A DNA stretch of 64,000 nucleotides from an uncultured delta proteobacterium (GTDB taxonomy: Bacteria; Desulfobacterota; Binatia; UBA9968): positions 96,001-160,000 of the forward strand of contig CAVXEP010000002.1 in assembly GCA_963760795.1 (NCBI GenBank). The letters run 5' to 3'. A program made the position numbers and the translations under genes. The notes beneath the pieces are model-generated. The model had not been told where the DNA came from and ran no database searches. It worked only from the letters and a program-made list of their open reading frames with translations. Positions 7,123 to 24,711 of the stretch are shown here, piece by piece; positions within the stretch are counted from its first letter, which is position 1; each line of letters opens with the position of its first letter.

Positions 7123-7214
7123 TCAGTAGGCGAAATATTTTCACCCTAGATGCGAAATTTCCCCTGAGAATTTTTTGTCGCAGTTTGCGTTCTTTGCGGC
7201 CAACTCTTCTTCGA

Positions 7215-8309
7215 TCAATCGAACGTCAAAATGGCTCGCCCTAATATTCGACCATGTTCCAGGTCGTCGACCGCTTGGTTGATCTGCTCCAGTTTGTAAC
7301 GGTTGGTAATCAGCTCGTTCAGCTTCAGCTTGCCGTCGCGAAACCAGCGCAGGAAGATCGGAAAATCGCGCTCCGGTTTGCAATCGCCGCCGCTGGTGCG
7401 TTTGAACGAGCGATTGCCGATGAACAAGCTGGTGTCGATGAGCGCCTTCGCATCGGGCGGCGTGATGCCGACGAGCAGCGCGATACCGCCTTGATTGAGC
7501 CCGGAAAATCCTGGCCGGACCGAGCGCAGGATTTGCTCCTGCGTCAATGGCAAGCCGATGGCGTCGATCGCATAGTCGGCGCCGCCGCCGGTTATATCCT
7601 TGATCGCTTGCACCGCGTCGCCTTCCTTCGCGTTGACGCCATGGGTCGCGCCCATGCGCTGAGCGAAGGCTAACTTTTGTGAATCGATGTCGACGGCGAT
7701 AATCGGATAGGCATCGACCACCGCCGCCGCCGAGATTGCGCACAGGCCGATGCCGCCGGCGCCGAATACGGCGACCGATTGCCCGGGCCGCGTTTGCAGG
7801 GTGTTAATGATCGCGCCGGCGCCGGTCATGACGGCGCAACCGACGATCGAGGTAACATCGGTGGGCAGATCCTTTGGCATCGGTAGCACAACCCGCTCCT
7901 GGGCGATGGCGTACTCGGCCCAGGTGGCCGCCGAATGCATCACATTCTTGCCTTTCCAGTTGGCGTTGTACTGCGTGCGGTCGTTGAGCGCGTGCGACAC
8001 CATCGGCTGGTTGGTAGTCGCACTGTCGCGATCGACCCAGGTGGTGATCACATGATCGCCTTCCTTAACATGGGTAACATCCCGCCCCTTGGCGATGACG
8101 ACGCCAGTGGACTCATGGCCCAGCAAGGCCGGCAGACTTTGCCCCTTGCGCGCCGGCCGCTGCATGGTGTGCAGCTGTGAGTGGCAGACGCCGCTGGCAA
8201 AGAGCTTTACTAAAACCTGATCCGCTCCGGGATCGGCAAATTCAACCTCATCGACCACCAATGGTTTTTTCGCCTCTACATAAATCGCCGCCCGCCCCTT
8301 AGTGCTCAT
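7215..8309 (-). CDS. Zinc-binding (MDR) alcohol dehydrogenase
   Basis: GVCHSQ, LLGHESTG, GCAVMTGAGA and Rossmann GAGGIG motifs. Confidence 0.9.
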   Translation of the reverse strand: MSTKGRAAIYVEAKKPLVVDEVEFADPGADQVLVKLFASGVCHSQLHTMQRPARKGQSLPALLGHESTGVVIAKGRDVTHVKEGDHVITTWVDRDSATTNQPMVSHALNDRTQYNANWKGKNVMHSAATWAEYAIAQERVVLPMPKDLPTDVTSIVGCAVMTGAGAIINTLQTRPGQSVAVFGAGGIGLCAISAAAVVDAYPIIAVDIDSQKLAFAQRMGATHGVNAKEGDAVQAIKDITGGGADYAIDAIGLPLTQEQILRSVRPGFSGLNQGGIALLVGITPPDAKALIDTSLFIGNRSFKRTSGGDCKPERDFPIFLRWFRDGKLKLNELITNRYKLEQINQAVDDLEHGRILGRAILTFD

Positions 8310-8427
8310 GCTCCCTCCGATCCGACAAACGAAATCCGCTGCGTTGAAAGAAATTTGCGGCGGCCATTCTCGTTCCTTGAACGGATATCTATGGTGAATG
8401 ACTGAGATTGTCTAGAGCTTTTGATTT

Positions 8428-8718
8428 AGCCTGGCGAGCCGCAACCGAGAAAGGCCGGAAAGGTTCACCACAGAGGGCTCAGAGATCACAGAGAAAAAAG
8501 ATTGATTCGGACAAATAGCCGCAGAGAAGGCAAAAGGTCGCAAAAAAGACCCGAAATTGTCGGGGCAATTCCCTTTGGTTGCCGATCCGAATCAGTCATG
8601 GTCACCGGCGACGATCACCAGGAGAATTTGTCGATGCTACGAAGATTCTCAACGGTAGTAGCTCACGCAAAATAGATCCAAGCAGAATTCCGATCGTAGG
8701 GGCGCATGGCATACGCCC
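8428..8718. repeat. Intergenic mosaic of repeat modules ending in a GTAG-type REP
   Basis: CCTGGCGAGCCGCAACC, CACCACAGAG..CAGAG and CCGCAGAGAAGGCAAAAG modules; GTAGGGGCGCATGGCATACGCCC at 8696-8718. Confidence 0.55.
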
Positions 8719-8846
8719 GGTGGCGGCGGCGCGGCGTATCGACATCGCACCGAGAAGCGCTGCTCGCGCTGGCGTGATTATGGCTGAATTGCTACGAAAT
8801 CGACGCGGTACCTATTCGGCGCACCCATCACTTTATCTAGGCGCAC

Positions 8847-9182
8847 TCAAAGCAGCATTTTGAACGGCCGCAACCAAGAATTGCCCTTCTCGAGTTCGCG
8901 CAGTTCATCGGCCTGGAGCTTGCTCATTACCAGTTTCATCTCCAACAGCTCCGCAGTGAGGATCTGCTTATCCGCGGTTAACTTTTGGTTTTCGGCGCGA
9001 AGATTATCCAGGTCCGCGGTTAAATTGGCCAGCTGTGCTTTAAGGCGCTCGATCTCGGCCTCTGGACCCATCCTACGATCATCCAACGCTATGACCGGCC
9101 CCGGCGCGGCCCCGGCTCCATTGGCGTTGGCATCCTGCTGCTGCCGCAGTCGCTCCAGTATCTGGGTTTTTCGATCCATCAT
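8847..9182 (-). CDS. Hypothetical coiled-coil protein
   Basis: Heptad pattern EIERLKAQLANLTADLDNLRAENQKL; start placed at MMDRK. Confidence 0.65.
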   Translation of the reverse strand: MMDRKTQILERLRQQQDANANGAGAAPGPVIALDDRRMGPEAEIERLKAQLANLTADLDNLRAENQKLTADKQILTAELLEMKLVMSKLQADELRELEKGNSWLRPFKMLL

Positions 9183-9482
9183 AGCGCGATAATTCCTTTC
9201 CCTTTCGCTATCAGCAAGCCGCCGGCCAATGGCGCCGCCGAGTCTTGTCCATCGCGTCAAGCCATTTTGCGGTGGGTTTCCGAAACAATCAAGCAGCCGC
9301 GGCGCGCGGTCCGACCCCATCAGCGCAGAGATTGTAATGCTCCGGTCGACTTTGACAGTCGTACTAAAATGTCCGGGCGACGATCACAGCCCCTAAACGA
9401 CATTGTTTGCGCGATATCTGCTGGTGCCGGATTTCACGAAAGTTCCTCGGCTTTTGTTCAAAATTGGGTTAAGAAGTTAACC

Positions 9483-10241
9483 ATGATTCCCTATCGCGAT
9501 GAAAATGAAACCCAGCACCCCGCCCTAGTCACCGGCGCCATCGTCGTCTTGAACATCGCCAGTTGGTTGTTCGTGCAAGGCGCCGGCGCCGACTTATCTT
9601 TGGCCAGATCGGTCTGCAACCTCGGCCTGATTCCCGGTGAACTGACCGGGTTACTGCCACCGGGCCAGGCCTTTCCAATGGGGCCGGGCACTGTCTGTCT
9701 GACCGATCCCGGCCGTCAAGTATCTCATCTGATCACGTCGATGTTTCTCCATGGCGGCTGGATGCACCTGATCGGCAACATGTGGTTCCTGTGGCTATTC
9801 GGCAACAATGTCGAGGACTCCATGGGACATCTGCGCTTCATCGCATTTTATCTGCTCACAGGCTTGGCGGCGGCACTTGGCCAAGTGATTGTCAGTCCCG
9901 ACTCGATCATCCCCATGGTTGGCGCCTCGGGCGCGATCAGCGGAGTCATGGGCGCCTATCTGGTGCTCTATCCGCGTGTGAAAGTCTACACGCTGGTGCC
10001 GATCTTTATTTTCTTCACATCGATCGCCCTGCCCGCCTGGGCCATGCTCGGCTACTGGTTCGTCCTCCAGCTCTTGAGCGGCTTCTTCTCACCGGGCGAC
10101 ATGGGTGGCGTCGCCTTTTGGGCGCATATCGGCGGCTTCATCGCCGGCGTCGTGCTGATCAAACTATTCGCCCGCGCGGATTACATCGCAGCCCACCGCG
10201 CCCATCACTGGCGCCCGCAGCGGCTCATGCGGGACTATTGA
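9483..10241 (+). CDS. Rhomboid family intramembrane serine protease
   Basis: SMFLHGGWMHLIGNM, catalytic GASG, AFWAHIGGF; start MIPYRD. Confidence 0.95.
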   Translation: MIPYRDENETQHPALVTGAIVVLNIASWLFVQGAGADLSLARSVCNLGLIPGELTGLLPPGQAFPMGPGTVCLTDPGRQVSHLITSMFLHGGWMHLIGNMWFLWLFGNNVEDSMGHLRFIAFYLLTGLAAALGQVIVSPDSIIPMVGASGAISGVMGAYLVLYPRVKVYTLVPIFIFFTSIALPAWAMLGYWFVLQLLSGFFSPGDMGGVAFWAHIGGFIAGVVLIKLFARADYIAAHRAHHWRPQRLMRDY

Positions 10242-10322
10242 CGATCCGGTTTACAGTGCCGTTCGCGGCGACTGGAGCGCAGATGACTTCAAGCGGTAGA
10301 GTCGGCGTTAGAGTCGGCGGCG

Positions 10323-11324
10323 TCATCTCTTATAGACTTTGTCGATGAATCCGCTCTTGTCCAACTCACGGACGATGCTTTCGTCGACCATGTCTTCGAA
10401 GCGCAGTGGCGCGCCGGACTTGCGGCGGTCGCTTCGCCTCGCGGATCTGAATTTCGACCCCGGGCCGGGTCACCAGAGGCACAACATCGTAAAGTTTCGC
10501 GCTCGCCTGTAGGCGGACTCCAAGTAGTCCTCGTTGTTGGTCCTGGCGTACTTGGCCATGATTTTCTTGCTCTCGTCTTTACGGGTTTTGACAAAATGCA
10601 CCGCCTCGATATGCGCCATGATAACTTTCTTAACGGTTTCTCGGTTCTTCTGCAAATAAGCTTTCGTTGTCGCCGCGCAAATATACGGAAACTCGAAGCG
10701 CTGCTTGAAGTCCGCCGTGCTGATCAATATTCGATGCGGCATCCCTTTGGTCAGGTGAATGACTCCCGGCGGCGACGGGAATCCGGCGATGCGTCCCGCG
10801 CGAAAGGCCGCGGCCCGTTCCGACGATCCGCCGACTTGCATGATCGGCACCTGCTTGTCCGGTTCCAGGTTCAAACCGCGCAGTAGCGCCCGCGCCGCCA
10901 CGTCCGAAGCGCTGCCGAGGCGGCTGATGCCGAGACTTTTGCCCTTGAGTTCCTCCGCCGATCTTATCGACTCATTGACCACCAACTCGTATGGCAGTGA
11001 ATTGAGATAACACGCGACAATGGCGATCTGCGCGCCAGCCAAGACCGCGCTCGCCACCGCCCCTCCCGACACATTGGCGACATGCACATCCCCCGCCAGC
11101 AGACTCGTCAAACTGGTCGTGGTGCTGGGGATGAAAAGTAGTTCAGAGTCCAAGCCTTGTTTCTTGTAGAAGCCCAGCTCCTGGGCGATAAACCACACGG
11201 CATTGCTGGTTTCCAAGGCGCTATGGGATAGCCGAATCTTTTCCTGAGCTGAAGCAGCACCGACAATACTAGTGGCGACAAACAATAACCCGACGACAAC
11301 ATTGACCGCCCGTGAAACTTTCAT
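10323..11324 (-). CDS. NMT1/SsuA-like ABC substrate-binding protein (two frameshifts near the 3' end)
   Basis: AQELGFYKKQGLD and LKGKSLGISRLGS; the C-terminus KLYDVVPLVTRPGVE...FEDMVDESIVRELDKSGFIDKVYKR* is read in shifted frames to a stop at 10323. Confidence 0.8.
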
Positions 11325-20045: not shown

Positions 20046-21035
20046 ATGCGCCATTTATGTCGGATGATATTCCCTCTCGTGGCATTGATCGTCGCGATGC
20101 CAGGCGCGGGCGCCCACGCGCAGGACAATCCGTACCGTATCGAAGAGGGTTGGGCGAAATTCCCCGATGGCAGAAAGTGGGGATCCACGTCCGCGGTCGA
20201 CGTCGATCGGGACGGCAACATCTGGGTTTTTGAGAGATGCGGCGAGCGCACCTGTGCCGGTTCGAACCTTGCGCCGATATTCATGTTTGATCGGTCCGGC
20301 AAGCCGGTGAAATCGTTTGGCGCAGGATTGTTCGTGTTCCCTCACGGCATGCATGTCGACAAAGACGGCAACGTGTGGGTGACTGACGCAGAGGGAAAAG
20401 ACGGCAAGGGCCACCAGGTTGTCAAATTCAGCCCGGATGGAAAGGTCTTGCTGGCCCTCGGAAAAGCGGGTGTTACAGGAGACGGCCCGGACACCTTCAA
20501 TCGGCCCTCGGCTGTCGTCACCGCTCCGAATGGCGACATTTTCGTCGCCGACGGACATGGCGGTGATTCCAATGCGCGCATCGTTAAGTTCTCGAAGGAC
20601 GGAAAGTTCATCAAGGCGTGGGGAAGAAAAGGGTCGGCCCCGGGCGAGTTCGCCGATCTCCACGCCATTGCTCTCGATTCCACAGGGAGGGTGTTTGTCG
20701 GCGACCGCGGCAACGGCCGCATCCAGATTTTCGACCAGGACGGCAAATTTCTCGGGGAGTGGAAGCAATTCGGCCGGCCGAGCGGGATCTTTATAGACCG
20801 GAACGACATAATTTATGTGGCCGATTCCCAGTCGGATGCGAAGCGAAACCCCGGGTTCAAGCGGGGCATTAGGATCGGCAGCGCCAAAGACGGTTCAGTG
20901 CACGCGCTGATTCCAGGCGTCGGAACGGAGCCGGACAAAGAGTCCGTGCCGGAAGGCGTGGCGGCGGATACCATGGGCAACGTATACGGCGCGGAAACCA
21001 GCGCCAACGATTTGAGGAAGTACGTCAAGAAGTAG
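20046..21035 (+). CDS. NHL-repeat peptidyl-alpha-hydroxyglycine alpha-amidating lyase-like protein
   Basis: Signal peptide; repeated PHGMHVDKDGNVWVTD, IFVADGH, VFVGDRGNGRIQIFD NHL blades. Confidence 0.85.
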   Translation: MRHLCRMIFPLVALIVAMPGAGAHAQDNPYRIEEGWAKFPDGRKWGSTSAVDVDRDGNIWVFERCGERTCAGSNLAPIFMFDRSGKPVKSFGAGLFVFPHGMHVDKDGNVWVTDAEGKDGKGHQVVKFSPDGKVLLALGKAGVTGDGPDTFNRPSAVVTAPNGDIFVADGHGGDSNARIVKFSKDGKFIKAWGRKGSAPGEFADLHAIALDSTGRVFVGDRGNGRIQIFDQDGKFLGEWKQFGRPSGIFIDRNDIIYVADSQSDAKRNPGFKRGIRIGSAKDGSVHALIPGVGTEPDKESVPEGVAADTMGNVYGAETSANDLRKYVKK

Positions 21036-21132
21036 GCGGGGAACTCCTTACTATTTGCTCCTGACCTTCGTAGTGAAATCTTTCATTCTCAAGTTTTTGC
21101 GGCTTCGCCGCGATGGGATCTTCCGGCTATTT

Positions 21133-21308
21133 CTATTGTGCCAGCATTTTTTCTGGGCTCGATGACCTCCGGCGGAGAATCGAAGATTTCTTTGACCAGC
21201 GCTTCAAGCTCTTCGCCGGAGGTCACCTTGACCTCCATCCGGCCTTTTTTCGCTTCGGCCAACGCCTCAGGGTCGCTCATGGTCTTGAGAAAGGCGTCCC
21301 GTAAGATT
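21133..21308 (-). pseudogene. Displaced 3' fragment of a tctC/Bug-type gene (diverged direct repeat of 36659-36836)
   Basis: Encodes ILRDAFLKTMSDPEALAEAKKGRMEVKVTSGEELEALVKEIFDSPPEVIE, nearly identical to the C-terminus of 36659-37711; no 5' part; similarity extends about 35 bp past the stop. Confidence 0.9.
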
Positions 21309-21512
21309 CATGCCACGACCGACTTGTCCAGCGTAACCTCCTTTGACGGCAGCGACTGGCGGGATTCCCTCTATCAGTTTACGCGATCTCTTGGCTTTGA
21401 GCCGCCCGGCCTGTTCCGTTGCGAGCATCCACCCATTCGGAAGGAAGGCGAGGTCCCACGGGTTGTTCGTGCTCGTAGTTTAGACACACCGATTTTTCCG
21501 ATTATTTAAATA

Positions 21513-21525
21513 AATCAAAAGCTTG
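21513..21525 (+). promoter_or_regulatory. IHF-binding consensus match
   Basis: AATCAA-AAGC-TTG matches WATCAANNNNTTR; preceded by AT tract ATTATTTAAATA. Confidence 0.5.
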
Positions 21526-21545
21526 CGTACCCAGATTTCTACTTT

Positions 21546-21687
21546 ACAGCTCTTGAGGTTTGGGTAGACAGCTGTTTTTGCAGGCCTGGGTAAGCTGTAT
21601 TAAATTCATAAATCAGCTCTACATCTATTGCGACCCAGCTGAATCGCTGATAGAAAGACAGCTCTAACGCAGGATGTTTAGAGCTGA
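21546..21687. repeat. Phased array of seven 8-bp AGCT-core palindromic boxes (period 22-23 bp)
   Basis: Boxes at 21546 ACAGCTCT, 21568 ACAGCTGT, 21591 TAAGCTGT, 21613 TCAGCTCT, 21635 CCAGCTGA, 21658 ACAGCTCT, 21680 AGAGCTGA; unrelated 14-15 bp spacers. Confidence 0.85.
21578..21606 (+). promoter_or_regulatory. Possible sigma70 promoter of the DndB-like gene, inside the box array
   Basis: TTGCAG-N17-TAAATT. Confidence 0.35.
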
Positions 21688-21703
21688 CGAGTAAAGAAGG
21701 ATC

Positions 21704-22812
21704 ATGAAACTTACTTTTCCTGTCATAAGAGGAAGCATGGGTAGGCGACAGTATTATTCGCTCCTGGTTCCGCTTTCAGAGATTCCTCATTTATTCAAAT
21801 TTAACGATTGGGCAGGCTGTACTCCGGAATTGCAGGCGCAAAGGATTCTGAATAAGGCAAGGGTTCCGGATATCACGAGCTACATACTCGAAAATGATGA
21901 TGGGTTCCTGTTTTCATCTATCACCGCATCCTACTCTTGTCCGGTAAAGTTCACTTCTTCAGCAGAGAACGCTGACGTTGGCACTTTAGAGATGGAGCTC
22001 GAAAACCTGGAGTTTATTATCAACGATGGCCAGCATCGGTGCGCGGCGATTGCTGCGGCACTCAAAGAAAATCCTGCGCTTGGGAAGGAAAAAATCTCGG
22101 TGCTTCTCTTTGAGACGGAAAGTATGGAACGGCTTCAGCAGATGTTCTCAGATTTAAATCGATTCGTGCAGCAGACGTCAAAATCGCTAGGGATGCTCTA
22201 TGATCGTCGAGATAACCTTTCCGCGCTCACAATGGAGCTGGCCGAGCAGGTCGACGTATTCCGACACATGGTGGAGAAAGAGAAAGTAACGATTCCGCGG
22301 AGGTCCCCAAGCTTTTTACCATCTCGGCTTTATACGAAGCGAACGAAGAATTGCTGGGTAAAAAAATCGCTGAACAGGGATCACCGGTGTACGGAGAGAT
22401 TCTCAAGACGGCTGTCGAATACTGGACAGAGCTTTCGCAGATCATTGGTGACTGGCAAAAAGTCAAAAATGGCGAACTTAGCGCTTCCGAACTCCGCCAA
22501 GAGAAGATCAATACCCATGCGGTTGTTTTGCGTGCGCTGGGAGGCGTTGGCAAAACGTTACTCGAAAAATATCCTGGGGACTGGCGGGGAAAACTCAAAC
22601 TTCTCGAAAGGCTTGATTGGCGGAAAACCGTAGATAGTAGCGCGAATCCTCTGTGGGATGCGGTATGTATCACCGCGGGCTCAGTCGTCTCCAACAGACA
22701 GGCACGAGCAGCTACTTTGGCGGTCTTGTTACGAGAAATCGGCGAATCGCCAAACGGAAAAATGACACACAAAGAATCTGCGGAGGTGACTAGTGCGCAG
22801 GCGACTGAATAA
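21704..22812 (+). CDS. dndB: DndB-family (DGQHR domain) DNA-binding protein; one frameshift near 22305-22310
   Basis: FPVIRGSMGRRQYY, AQRILNKARVPDITSYI, LFSSITAS, INDGQHRCAAI, QQMFSDLNR; continues as KLFTISALYEA...LDWRK...W in the next frame; about 369 aa if one base is restored in CCCCAA. Confidence 0.85.
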
Positions 22813-24711
22813 TCGAAACCACCGTAAAAATCCTACCGTTGCCGATCGGCAGGGAGCTGCCGGGGGCGCTCTCAGCGTGGTTAGTGCCGATGCTGCGGAG
22901 GATCGATCTACAACTCGCCTGTGGCAGTTACTTCCAACTGCATGGAACATAATCCGGCCCTACTGGTCCTCGGAGGACCGCTGGGCGGCGTGGGGGCTGC
23001 TCGTTGTCGTGGTCGCGCTCACCCTCGGGATGGTTCATATCAATGTGCTCTTTAGTTATTGGAATAACGACTTCTTTAGCGCTCTTCAGAATAAAGACCA
23101 ATCATCCTTTCTCCACCAGTTGCTTCGCGTTTCGTGGCTAGTAGGTCTGTATATCTTCGTCGCCGTCTACCAGCTTTACCTTAACCAGATGCTCGACATC
23201 CGCTGGCGGCGCTGGCTTACCGAGCGATACCTCCGCGCTTGGATGGCCGATGGCGCTTATTATCGAATGCAGCTCGAGGCGCGTGAGACCGACAATCCCG
23301 ACCAGCGCATCGCCGAAGACGTTCACCTGCTTGTTTCCCATACCCTCACCCTCCTACTGGGAGGGTTGCGGGCGGTGGTGACGATGATTGCCTTTGTGGG
23401 GATTCTCTGGGCGCTCTCCGGAACGCTCACGGTCCCGCTTGGCTGGTTCTCTCTCACTTTGCCCGGCTACTTGGTATGGGCGGCCATCTTGTACGCTGTC
23501 GGCGGCACGTGGCTCACCGACCGGATCGGCCGCCCGCTCGTGCGGCTGAACTTCGACAAGCAACGTTGTGAAGCCGACTTCCGGTTCGGCCTGGTGCGCT
23601 TTCGCGAGAACACCGAGGGGGTAGCGCTCTACCGCGGCGAGGCGGACGAGTTACGTTCTTTCCGCGAACGGTTCGAAGCGGTAGTGGCCAATTGGTGGAA
23701 CATCATGCGCCGACAGAAGCGATTGACCTACTTCACCGCTGGCTACGGCCAAGGGGCGTGGATTTTCCCGTCCGTCATGGCGGCGCCGCGCTACTTCCGA
23801 GGCGAGATTGCACTCGGAGGGCTCATGCAGACGATCGGGGCTTTCGGCCAGCTACAGGCTTCGCTTAGCTTTTTTATCGACTCGTATAAGACGATTGCTG
23901 AATGGTGCTCGGTAGTCGAGAGGCTCTCCGGGTTCGAGCGCGCGCTAGAACGCGTGCGCATCCAGGCGGCGACTGAAGGAGGCGTCCGGCGTGTCGATGG
24001 CGGCACTGCTCACATAACAGTGGAGGGGGTGGATCTCCATCGCCCCGATGGTCAGCCGCTCATCGCGAATGTGAATCTCTCGCTCCAGCGCGGCGACACA
24101 GTTCTTCTGGGGGGCTCTTCCGGGTCGGGCAAGAGTACGCTCGTTCGTGCCATCGCGGGAATCTGGCCTTTTGGCCAAGGTGAGATCCGCCGATCGCGCG
24201 ACGCTCGGGTTCTCTTTCTTCCGCAGAAGCCTTACCTGCCGATCGGTACGCTCCGGGAAGTGGTGAGTTACCCGATGCCAACGGGTGGGTTTGATGACGC
24301 GACACTGCGCGAGGCGCTGGACTGGCAGTCGGGCTCCCTGGGTTCGCCGAACGGCTCAGCGAGGCTGGCCATTGGGCGCTCCAACTTTCCCCCGGCGAAC
24401 AGCAGCGCATCGCCTTTGCCCGCGCGCTGGTGCAGAAGCCCGAGTGGCTCTTCCTTGATGAGGCGACCTCGGCAGTGGACGAGGCTACGGAGGCGCGTCT
24501 GTATCGACTGCTGCGCGAGCGGCTTGCCGACACGACTGTGTTCAGCATCGGTCATCGAGCGACCCTGCGCGCCTTCCACGCTCGCCAACTTTTGGTGCGG
24601 GCCAATGGGACGGGACCTTCCTCTATCGTAGAGGTGACCGCGGTACCGGAATCGGCTCGAGGCAATGTGGCCATTCCACTGCATGCGAAAGTCGCTGCAC
24701 TGGCTGGGTAA
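22793..24711 (+). CDS. Fused ABC transporter permease/ATPase (YddA/ABCD-like); frameshift near 24320
   Basis: DNPDQRIAED, EADFRFGLVRFREN, Walker A GSSGSGKS, LFLPQKPYLP; Walker B WLFLDEATSA in ORF 24430-24711; start uncertain. Confidence 0.85.

Follow-up and report, generated by a model that had tools for sequence, protein, structure and literature searches.

A phased AGCT array ahead of a DndB-family gene

The stretch of DNA analysed here (the window) is 64,000 nucleotides long and comes from an uncultured member of the Binatia (contig CAVXEP010000002.1). It contains a row of seven AGCT cores directly upstream of a gene of the DndB family, and this array, the gene and the putative promoter within the array are the subject of this report. 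The cores start at 21548, 21570, 21593, 21615, 21637, 21660 and 21682, i.e. with gaps of 22, 23, 22, 22, 23 and 22 bp, exactly as claimed in an original prediction made from the letters alone. Written as 8-bp boxes, which carry no strand, they are box 1 (21546..21553, ACAGCTCT), box 2 (21568..21575, ACAGCTGT), box 3 (21591..21598, TAAGCTGT), box 4 (21613..21620, TCAGCTCT), box 5 (21635..21642, CCAGCTGA), which is inside the promoter spacer, box 6 (21658..21665, ACAGCTCT), which is over the putative transcription start, and box 7 (21680..21687, AGAGCTGA) in the putative 5' leader. The two arms of a perfect 9-nt inverted repeat (21659-21667 and 21678-21686) lie at boxes 6 and 7. An eighth AGCT at 21520, 28 bp upstream of 21548, is out of phase and lies within an IHF-like match. 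Downstream of the array, a putative ribosome-binding site, GAAGGA (21696..21701, + strand), precedes the DndB-family gene (21704..22812, + strand).

The 204 bases from 21500 to 21703 contain eight AGCT, whereas 0.63 would be expected at the window's own density; no other tetranucleotide palindrome is enriched in this interval. A genome-wide scan for further arrays showed that this is the sole chain of at least four AGCT at a spacing of 21-24 bp in the whole 6.58-Mb assembly (35 contigs, 6,581,560 bases). The composition-matched shuffle test that had been proposed with the original prediction never reproduced the phasing: when the 263 bp preceding the gene were shuffled 2,000 times by mononucleotide, chains of any 4-mer reached a length of three in 42 shuffles and more in none, compared with seven observed. 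Tandem Repeats Finder returned 0 rows at the array and a repeat search of the array recovered just the boxes of ~9 nt; therefore, the spacers within one array are mutually unrelated. We conclude that the phased AGCT array in the window is not due to chance.

In the window, the DndB-family gene is read in two frames. The open reading frame (ORF) 21704-22633 matches positions 1-201 of PF14072 and the ORF 22351-22812, in the other frame, matches positions 228-336 (224.4 and 82.1 bits, respectively; cut-off 29.1). With the TIGR03233 equivalog model, the two frames score 218.9 and 81.5 bits, each below the cut-off of 328 because the gene is split, while the intact orthologues in two relatives (loci L001 and L024) pass it with 332.5 and 351.7 bits. 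A 1-nt deletion at ~22305 in a run of C is the only gap relative to the 96%-identical orthologue of L001 (1069/1127 bases identical), and the gene is otherwise intact. An extra base at 22304 or 22305 is present in contigs of four public runs, i.e. two DNA and two RNA libraries from different studies; it accounts for all depth at the site in three of these runs and, in run X1, for one contig (28.3 of 66.8) together with two clipped ends that continue with the extra base. Because four public runs carry the extra base, the frame break most likely stems from an assembly error or is a private feature of this strain.

The gene is the single DndB locus in the genome. dndC was not found in this genome, which is 88.9% complete, and Pfam searches detected no Dnd family among 55 flanking ORFs (21 ORFs in 16 relative loci and the first downstream ORF in 34 further loci). 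Moreover, PADLOC called the DndB genes DndB only. Together with the PF14072 match, these results bear out the claim that an orphan DndB/DGQHR gene lies downstream of the array. The window encodes EFIINDGQ, and D108-G-Q-H-R112 is invariant in 10/10 aligned relatives.

The predicted structure of a DndB orthologue (predicted local distance difference test (pLDDT) 73.7) consists of an N-terminal domain with the DGQHR motif and a helical C-terminal domain. The closest fold matches of the N-domain are PadC (Z 8.1; root-mean-square deviation 3.1, 97 aligned residues), KorB (Z 7.0) and sulfiredoxin (Z 6.1), and the domain is thus predicted to have a ParB/Srx fold. Foldseek found no match in the PDB at an E-value of 0.001 or better, the best being ParB 7bm8 at 0.017, and a PDB sequence search with the DndB orthologue returned nothing meaningful (one de novo design at E 0.12). 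The C-domain had no clear structural match, Z scores of up to 5.5 among helical proteins being noise; it contains an Rx6H motif with invariant R265 and H272, and according to PMC3632139 the Rx6H of the DndB C-domain is assigned as HEPN-type. A symmetric homodimer of the N-domain was predicted with a score of 0.76 compared with 0.00 for the best of three controls; this mark is reached by 20/30 proteins solved as same-chain pairs and by 1/23 solved as single chains, counts that hold only roughly for a prediction made on a custom alignment. At least 70% of contacts recur across the dimer runs, with a partner pLDDT of at least 77.

Conservation of the array and its register with the promoter

Relatives were collected in two scans of a species-representative genome collection, which yielded 33 and 80 loci, respectively, the second set being the best 80 of 481 relatives. 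Two loci with a match starting at a contig edge were dropped and four from the first scan were added, giving 82 distinct loci with proteins 48-100% identical and about 13 phylum labels; being drawn from related sequences, the counts of loci reported here are not independent. A chain of at least four AGCT at 21-23 bp within 300 bp upstream of the gene was present in 46/82 loci and a chain of at least three in 52/82; by comparison, a chain of at least four was present in 1/2,488 other 303-bp windows of the same loci. Among 368 gaps between adjacent AGCT upstream of the relatives' genes, 230 measure 21-23 bp (17, 165 and 48, respectively; mean 22.13), so that 165/230 phased gaps are exactly 22 bp, and a further 17/368 are 43-46 bp, i.e. 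one box is skipped. The original prediction had anticipated a conserved period with variable spacers upstream of homologues lacking dndCDE, and this is what we found. It had also pointed to the ATG lying 22 bp after the last core, which is true in the window; as a meaningful distance, however, it fails, since the last box is 15-87 bp from the start codon among the relatives, and the match with the period is incidental.

Over the 149 phased boxes of the 33 loci from the first scan, the consensus is A-S-AGCT-S-T, with C or G at position -1 in 141/149 boxes and at +4 in 148/149, A at -2 in 80 and T at +5 in 79. This agrees with the W-S-AGCT-S-W of the original prediction but only partly with its near-palindromic character, since the flanks are mostly asymmetric: CAGCTC (55) and GAGCTG (48) make up 103 boxes versus 40 for CAGCTG (20) and GAGCTC (20). 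The orientations of the boxes often alternate and are all direct in two Thermoanaerobaculia loci. The conserved information is limited to 6-8 bp per 22-bp unit. In the same 33 loci, the mid-spacer positions (-9/-8 and +11/+12 from the A of AGCT) are A/T in 71-77% compared with 50-63% in the remaining spacer; these A/T-rich positions, one helical turn from the box centres, might be a second, weaker contact or a bend, a signal that is confounded by the promoter hexamers and by relatedness.

The position of the boxes relative to the promoter was scored in 51 arrays, each represented by its best sigma-70 match. The first base of the -35 lies 5 nt downstream of the A of AGCT in 21/51 arrays and 13 nt downstream of it in 7/51, the latter all Binatia-type; in total, in 28/51 arrays the boxes flank or lie between the -35 and the -10 in a fixed register. 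In locus L094, for instance, the sequence reads AGCTcTTGACA...AGCTcTATAAT, i.e. TTGACA comes immediately after one box and TATAAT immediately after the next. In Binatia relatives, TTGACA ends 3 bp before a box and, 17 bp on, TGnTAGAAA or TGnTACAAA stands just before the next box. The corresponding elements of the window are a putative -35, TTGCGA (21628..21633, + strand), which is homologous to the Binatia TTGACA and ends 3 bp before box 5, and a putative extended -10, TGaTAGAAA (21648..21656, + strand), at the place conserved in Binatia relatives, 17 bp after the -35. The possible sigma-70 promoter that the original prediction had placed inside the array is thus supported, with boxes interleaved with the -35 and -10 in the relatives and the hexamers of the window assigned by homology. 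The claim that the spacers are unrelated holds within one array but not across loci, where two spacers carry the conserved -35 and -10. In the overall layout, two boxes bracket or fill the promoter spacer, one is over the expected start, at least one is in the leader and two to four are upstream; judged from the sequences, this is the layout of an operator. In two RNA libraries, contigs extend over the coding region from positions 21708 and 21808 on, and the array is covered by none of them; contigs cannot show starts, the libraries may contain DNA, and a DNA contig of another run also stops at 21704, so that these contigs are uninformative on the start or on expression.

Sequence signals for IHF are more restricted. 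The original prediction had placed an IHF site upstream of the array, and a consensus match, AATCAAAAGCTTG, is indeed present at 21513..21525 (+ strand), where it contains the out-of-phase AGCT ('box 0', 21520-21523). The exact consensus is kept in 6/15 Binatia-type loci, with near-matches in several more by eye, and is found in 2/32 other arrays and in 38/13,161 background 94-bp windows. The genome has two genes of the HU/IHF family, which score 63.6 and 59.5 bits versus a cut-off of 120.25 for IHF-alpha. Thus, the site does not stand as a general feature of the array; from its distribution it appears to be a lineage-specific addition in the Binatia with a putative function.

In a FastTree phylogeny of 77 proteins, from which seven truncated rows were dropped, the outgroup was a canonical dndB encoded on a Rhizobium plasmid with dndBCDE. 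Both major subclades contain arrays (20/33 and 24/40 rows), and these are spread over about 13 phylum labels, including two groups of the candidate phyla radiation. Arrays were found neither in the three basal rows of the tree nor in the dndBCDE outgroup. The distribution requires at least 12-16 state changes on the tree; therefore, the array appears to be ancient in the clade and frequently eroded.

Some relatives have a similar array built on another core. GATGTC in L068 (2460-2680), GACTC in L083 (4850-5000) and GAGCGG in L092 (4840-5000) each form four boxes at a spacing of ~22 bp that keep the register relative to TTGACA and the -10, and L069 and L078 have arrays with AGTT variants; as a null for other cores, 5-mer chains of at least three occurred in 2/500 shuffles. 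The alternative cores are apparent specificity switches. Because core specificity changes together with the cassette, the binder is most simply the cassette's own protein.

The only gene common to all loci is the DndB gene. Counted by context, arrays are present in 12/13 loci with an ABC transporter, in 12/24 loci with a protein of ~790 amino acids with or without a methyltransferase, and in 17/37 other loci. Likewise, among transporter orthologues of the same genus with at least 75% identity, the DndB gene is always directly upstream and the array is present in 7/9, i.e. in all loci that reach that far upstream, while transporter homologues with at most 67% identity have neither DndB nor an array within 1.5 kb. 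The array is thus associated exclusively with the DndB gene. That DndB alone is common to all contexts points to an operator that serves the neighbouring protein and stands apart from phosphorothioation.

A candidate operator and its competing explanations

Altogether, we consider that the array is probably a cooperative autoregulatory operator of the adjacent DndB gene. The DndB-family protein encoded immediately downstream would occupy each S-AGCT-S box as a two-fold symmetric unit. With boxes two helical turns apart and thus roughly on one face of the DNA, neighbouring units would touch and bind cooperatively, and the row of boxes, which begins ~80 bp ahead of the -35, continues ~25 bp into the leader and covers the promoter spacer and the start, would exclude RNA polymerase. 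Many weak boxes would make for a steep switch, and their occupancy may be set by nucleotides bound at the ParB/Srx domain, in analogy to DndB of Salmonella. The operon controlled in this way would comprise DndB and an SbmA/BacA-like ABC transporter in the Binatia and, elsewhere, DndB alone or with varied defence-type genes. The original prediction had proposed a cooperative operator for the adjacent protein; the conserved period, the promoter register and the association with DndB only agree with this proposal, in which binding by DndB itself is the part that we infer.

The closest precedent is DndB (DptB) of Salmonella enterica Cerro 87, which is a repressor of its own promoter footprinted on two TACG-N10-CGTA palindromes (PMC4507180). 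The two cases have in common the protein family, short 4-bp symmetric elements in the gene's own promoter and, by inference here, negative autoregulation. Unlike in Salmonella, there are four to eight S-AGCT-S boxes with a fixed 22-bp period that are interleaved with the promoter hexamers, and dndCDE are lacking. Nucleotide control of DndB is described in PMC10853773 and PMC12704722. No phased array was found at a canonical dndBCDE locus (Rhizobium plasmid, 38.6% identity). Control of DndB by adenosine triphosphate was reportedly described by Xia et al. in 2019, and we know of no dependence on cytidine triphosphate in the DndB clade.

Several observations weigh against an operator bound by DndB. 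No chain of at least four AGCT is present in 36/82 relatives, and in an Acidobacteriota subgroup (L017, L021 and L032, the last two also represented as L062 and L064) no phased motif was found within 600 bp. The palindromic core of 4-6 bp is small for a sequence-specific dimer. In a related strain, a G>T change at 21683 breaks box 7 (one 356-nt contig of depth 12 from a public soil DNA run); two further differences in that contig are T>G at 21677 and the loss of 1 nt at 21575. At the level of the promoter, a strict sigma-70 and terminator scan of 21300-21800 returned 0 sites, and the window's own -35 (TTGCGA) is weak, its hexamers being those assigned by homology. The Salmonella operator motif TACG-N10-CGTA has 0 matches in the 64-kb window. 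Within DndB, the 11 alignment columns that track the core switches (L068, L083, L092, L069 and L078) are scattered and unclustered, and neither these columns nor the fold comparison identified a DNA-reading element. Finally, in 7/92 loci a small ORF of 100-117 amino acids, directly after or overlapping the end of the DndB gene, may contribute to binding there.

The last two points would also fit the idea that the boxes are bound by another factor, i.e. a host nucleoid or regulatory protein or a cassette protein such as a small KorA-like helix-turn-helix (HTH) protein. Three of the small ORFs (L086:6107-6460, L089:6110-6424 and L110:6122-6424; the others are in L098, L107, L112 and L118) match the same part of KORA, its HTH part, with sub-threshold E-values of 0.21, 0.065 and 0.0046, respectively, and a relaxed Pfam scan of the small ORFs after DndB in four loci found no PC4, just sub-threshold KORA and HTH_Tnp_4. 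The small ORF is, however, missing from 85/92 loci, including all Binatia loci and all those with the ~790-amino-acid partner. A host factor, for its part, would need the same boxes in about 13 phyla and would have to follow the core switches of single cassettes, and the genome has no further array that would hint at a host regulon. We therefore regard another binder as unlikely.

A bolder variant of the operator reading keeps DndB as the binder. Stand-alone DndB could be a nucleotide-gated sensor and effector for which the array is a parking platform, with the filament released at once during phage attack; we hold this to be a speculative possibility. ParB-fold dimers would form a filament on one face of ~150 bp or, as 22.1 bp per box is slightly more than two turns, winding round the DNA. 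Changed nucleotide pools or a changed DNA state would cause release, which would free the HEPN-type Rx6H protein and turn on the downstream cargo, i.e. the GHKL-like ~790-amino-acid protein with its methyltransferase, TIR, Schlafen-like and ATPase genes or, in the Binatia, a peptide-uptake-type transporter. If true, array and DndB would be a portable, specificity-switchable control module for bacterial immunity genes.

Alternatively, the AGCT boxes could be methyltransferase targets, with the array reading methylation to time a restriction-like partner and DndB having a secondary part or none. AGCT-containing palindromes are typical targets of methyltransferases, and 21/82 loci pair DndB and the ~790-amino-acid protein with an N6_N4-type methyltransferase, convergent where the gene order was read. 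By contrast, arrays are as frequent without a nearby methyltransferase (the 12/13 ABC transporter loci and the 17/37 other loci), and among the 21 loci with the ~790-amino-acid gene and the methyltransferase the array is present in 12 and absent in 9. Moreover, methylation needs neither strict 22-bp phasing nor the promoter register, and the genome shows no depletion of AGCT, its 22,495 sites in 6.58 Mb being about 0.9 of the base-composition prediction. In total, this explanation is very unlikely.

The original prediction had also considered a centromere- or iteron-like nucleoprotein centre, either a parS-type loading site or a replication origin. The ParB/Srx fold predicted for the N-domain, the proximity of the KorB and ParB structures, the multi-site phased array of short boxes and the possible IHF site in one lineage recall P1 parS and iterons. 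Unlike those systems, the array has no ParA, Rep or other gene for partition or replication next to it in the window and occurs only once in the genome; its locus is chromosomal, its spacers are unconstrained with 6-8 bp conserved per unit, and its boxes are arranged around the promoter hexamers of the gene itself, all of which makes such a centre highly improbable. Hardly to be entertained is the remaining suggestion, a structured or processed RNA leader with repeats and spacers: 21540-21710 folds at z = -2.5 (3 of 200 shuffles fold as well) and boxes 6 and 7 form the perfect 9-nt inverted repeat, but such folding is expected, as self-complementary boxes pair by construction, the -35 and -10 inside the array leave 5/7 boxes upstream of the putative start, Rfam on 21000-22000 at E up to 1 gave a single snoRNA match (0.69), and the repeats are 8-9 nt in mixed orientation versus the direct repeats of at least 20 nt in CRISPR-like or ToxI-like arrays.

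Related systems and genes associated with the cassette

Beyond Salmonella DndB, the array resembles several known systems in part. The RK2 proteins KorB and KorA come to mind because KorB has a ParB/Srx N-domain and represses promoters, and because the ORF with sub-threshold KORA similarity follows DndB in 7/92 loci; on the other hand, the sequence similarity to KorB is insignificant and the KORA matches do not reach the cut-off. KorB binds single 13-bp palindromes that are scattered over the plasmid and not phased, while the KorA operator is a 12-bp palindrome with the same central tetranucleotide as the boxes here. ArgR on tandem ARG boxes and PhoB/OmpR on tandem 20-22-bp sites bind cooperatively to repeats of about two turns on one face that overlap the promoter; in these systems the whole 18-22-bp unit is conserved and there are usually two to four units, whereas 6-8 bp are conserved per unit here, there are up to eight units, and the folds are unrelated. 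The loci with DndB, the ~790-amino-acid protein and the methyltransferase are comparable to restriction-modification systems with C proteins and C-boxes, in which a small regulatory gene precedes a restriction-like gene and controls the promoter of both. C proteins are HTH dimers on two adjacent palindromes and are not known to have a ParB fold, a nucleotide pocket or a long array.

To our knowledge, DndB has until now been described as repressing the phosphorothioation operon, with a single footprinted operator of two palindromes. In the full-text literature searched, no description of a phased array was found; according to a 2018 review (PMC6435447), dnd promoters show no simple repeats. Thus, DndB autoregulation is known as a kind of element, while the long phased promoter-interleaved array with an exchangeable core, its link to a dndCDE-free clade and its co-option by a transporter operon were not found in the literature searched. 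The relatives form a large DndB clade that meets the NCBI equivalog score, is never beside dndCDE in the loci examined and has one cis-architecture. They would offer an easily testable model for DNA reading by a ParB/Srx-fold protein without an obvious HTH, and the phased array could serve as a signature for finding such cassettes and their cargo in defence islands. Among cultured organisms, Sulfitobacter aestuarii TISTR 2562 (locus L089) and a 15-kb Neorhizobium plasmid (locus L121) carry the cassette.

In the window, the array and DndB are followed by an SbmA/BacA-like ABC transporter gene (22793..24711, + strand; ABC_membrane_2, SbmA_BacA and ABC_tran) that shares 20 nt with the end of the DndB gene and is likely the second gene of a DndB operon. 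The DndB-transporter pair recurs in Binatia loci, and the locus is chromosomal and syntenic within the genus; it would be an example of the module having been taken over by a non-defence operon. Comparison with orthologues by tblastn revealed a frame break near 24305-24371, the second within 3 kb, which leaves the ABC_tran domain only half matched in the ORF 22793-24631 and reflects either a long-read assembly error or decay of the operon. Neighbours in the window are hydrolases, an NHL propeller and the ABC transporter. Neighbours in the other loci include TIR, Schlafen/AlbA_2, AAA_15, an Eco57I-like methylase, integrases, transposases and a Rep3 initiator.

The trio of DndB, the ~790-amino-acid protein and a convergent methyltransferase is exemplified by L024, with the two partner genes at 7137-9515 and 9536-10834, and is also present in L016, L017, L018, L026, L030, L031 and others. 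PADLOC calls the methyltransferases of the trio Type II methyltransferase. The ~790-amino-acid protein had no match in Pfam, NCBIfam, PADLOC or a PDB sequence search; 'hypothetical protein' clusters of similar length surround it in the ESM Atlas, and in a few of these clusters 26-30% of the members carry HATPase_c_3. The trio is possibly an undescribed GHKL-type restriction-modification-like system. A relationship between the Binatia transporter and the ~790-amino-acid partner was considered and rejected, as BLASTP showed no relation between them.

The Acidobacteriota subgroup that lacks a phased motif also carries the trio. In its locus L017, an unannotated ORF of 127 amino acids overlaps the start of the DndB gene by 4 nt, and the 3' end of this extra upstream ORF is common to L021 and L032; the control region of the subgroup may have been replaced. 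In distant relatives, a short GC-rich inverted repeat, GAGCG...CGCTC, is present in the putative 5' leader, sometimes with an AGCT box in its loop; it lies between the last core box and the start codon in L077, L081, L084, L092, L109 and L110, and also occurs in L031, L033, L111 and L121. This leader repeat is absent from the window.

To the left of the array, a fragment of a glucose/sorbosone dehydrogenase gene (21270-21479, - strand) matches positions 2-47 of the 332 positions of PF07995 with 26.8 bits and ends ~20 bp before the AT-rich start of the cassette, so that a truncated gene marks its left edge. Over ~65-75 nt, the fragment matches two genomes of another family in the same order at 75-80%. 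An ORF of 63 amino acids (21089-21280, - strand) has no family match; at the corresponding position, L001 and L035 have DNA that is 73% identical, so that relatives retain this ORF ahead of the cassette. ARAGORN found nothing in 20900-21750. Finally, large conjugative plasmids of Pseudomonas and E. coli (L123 and L124) encode proteins of ~550 amino acids that are annotated as DndB, with ~30% identity over the DndB part; they are without dndCDE and without an AGCT array, and the copy on the Pseudomonas plasmid is near rdgC, HU and SprT-like genes.

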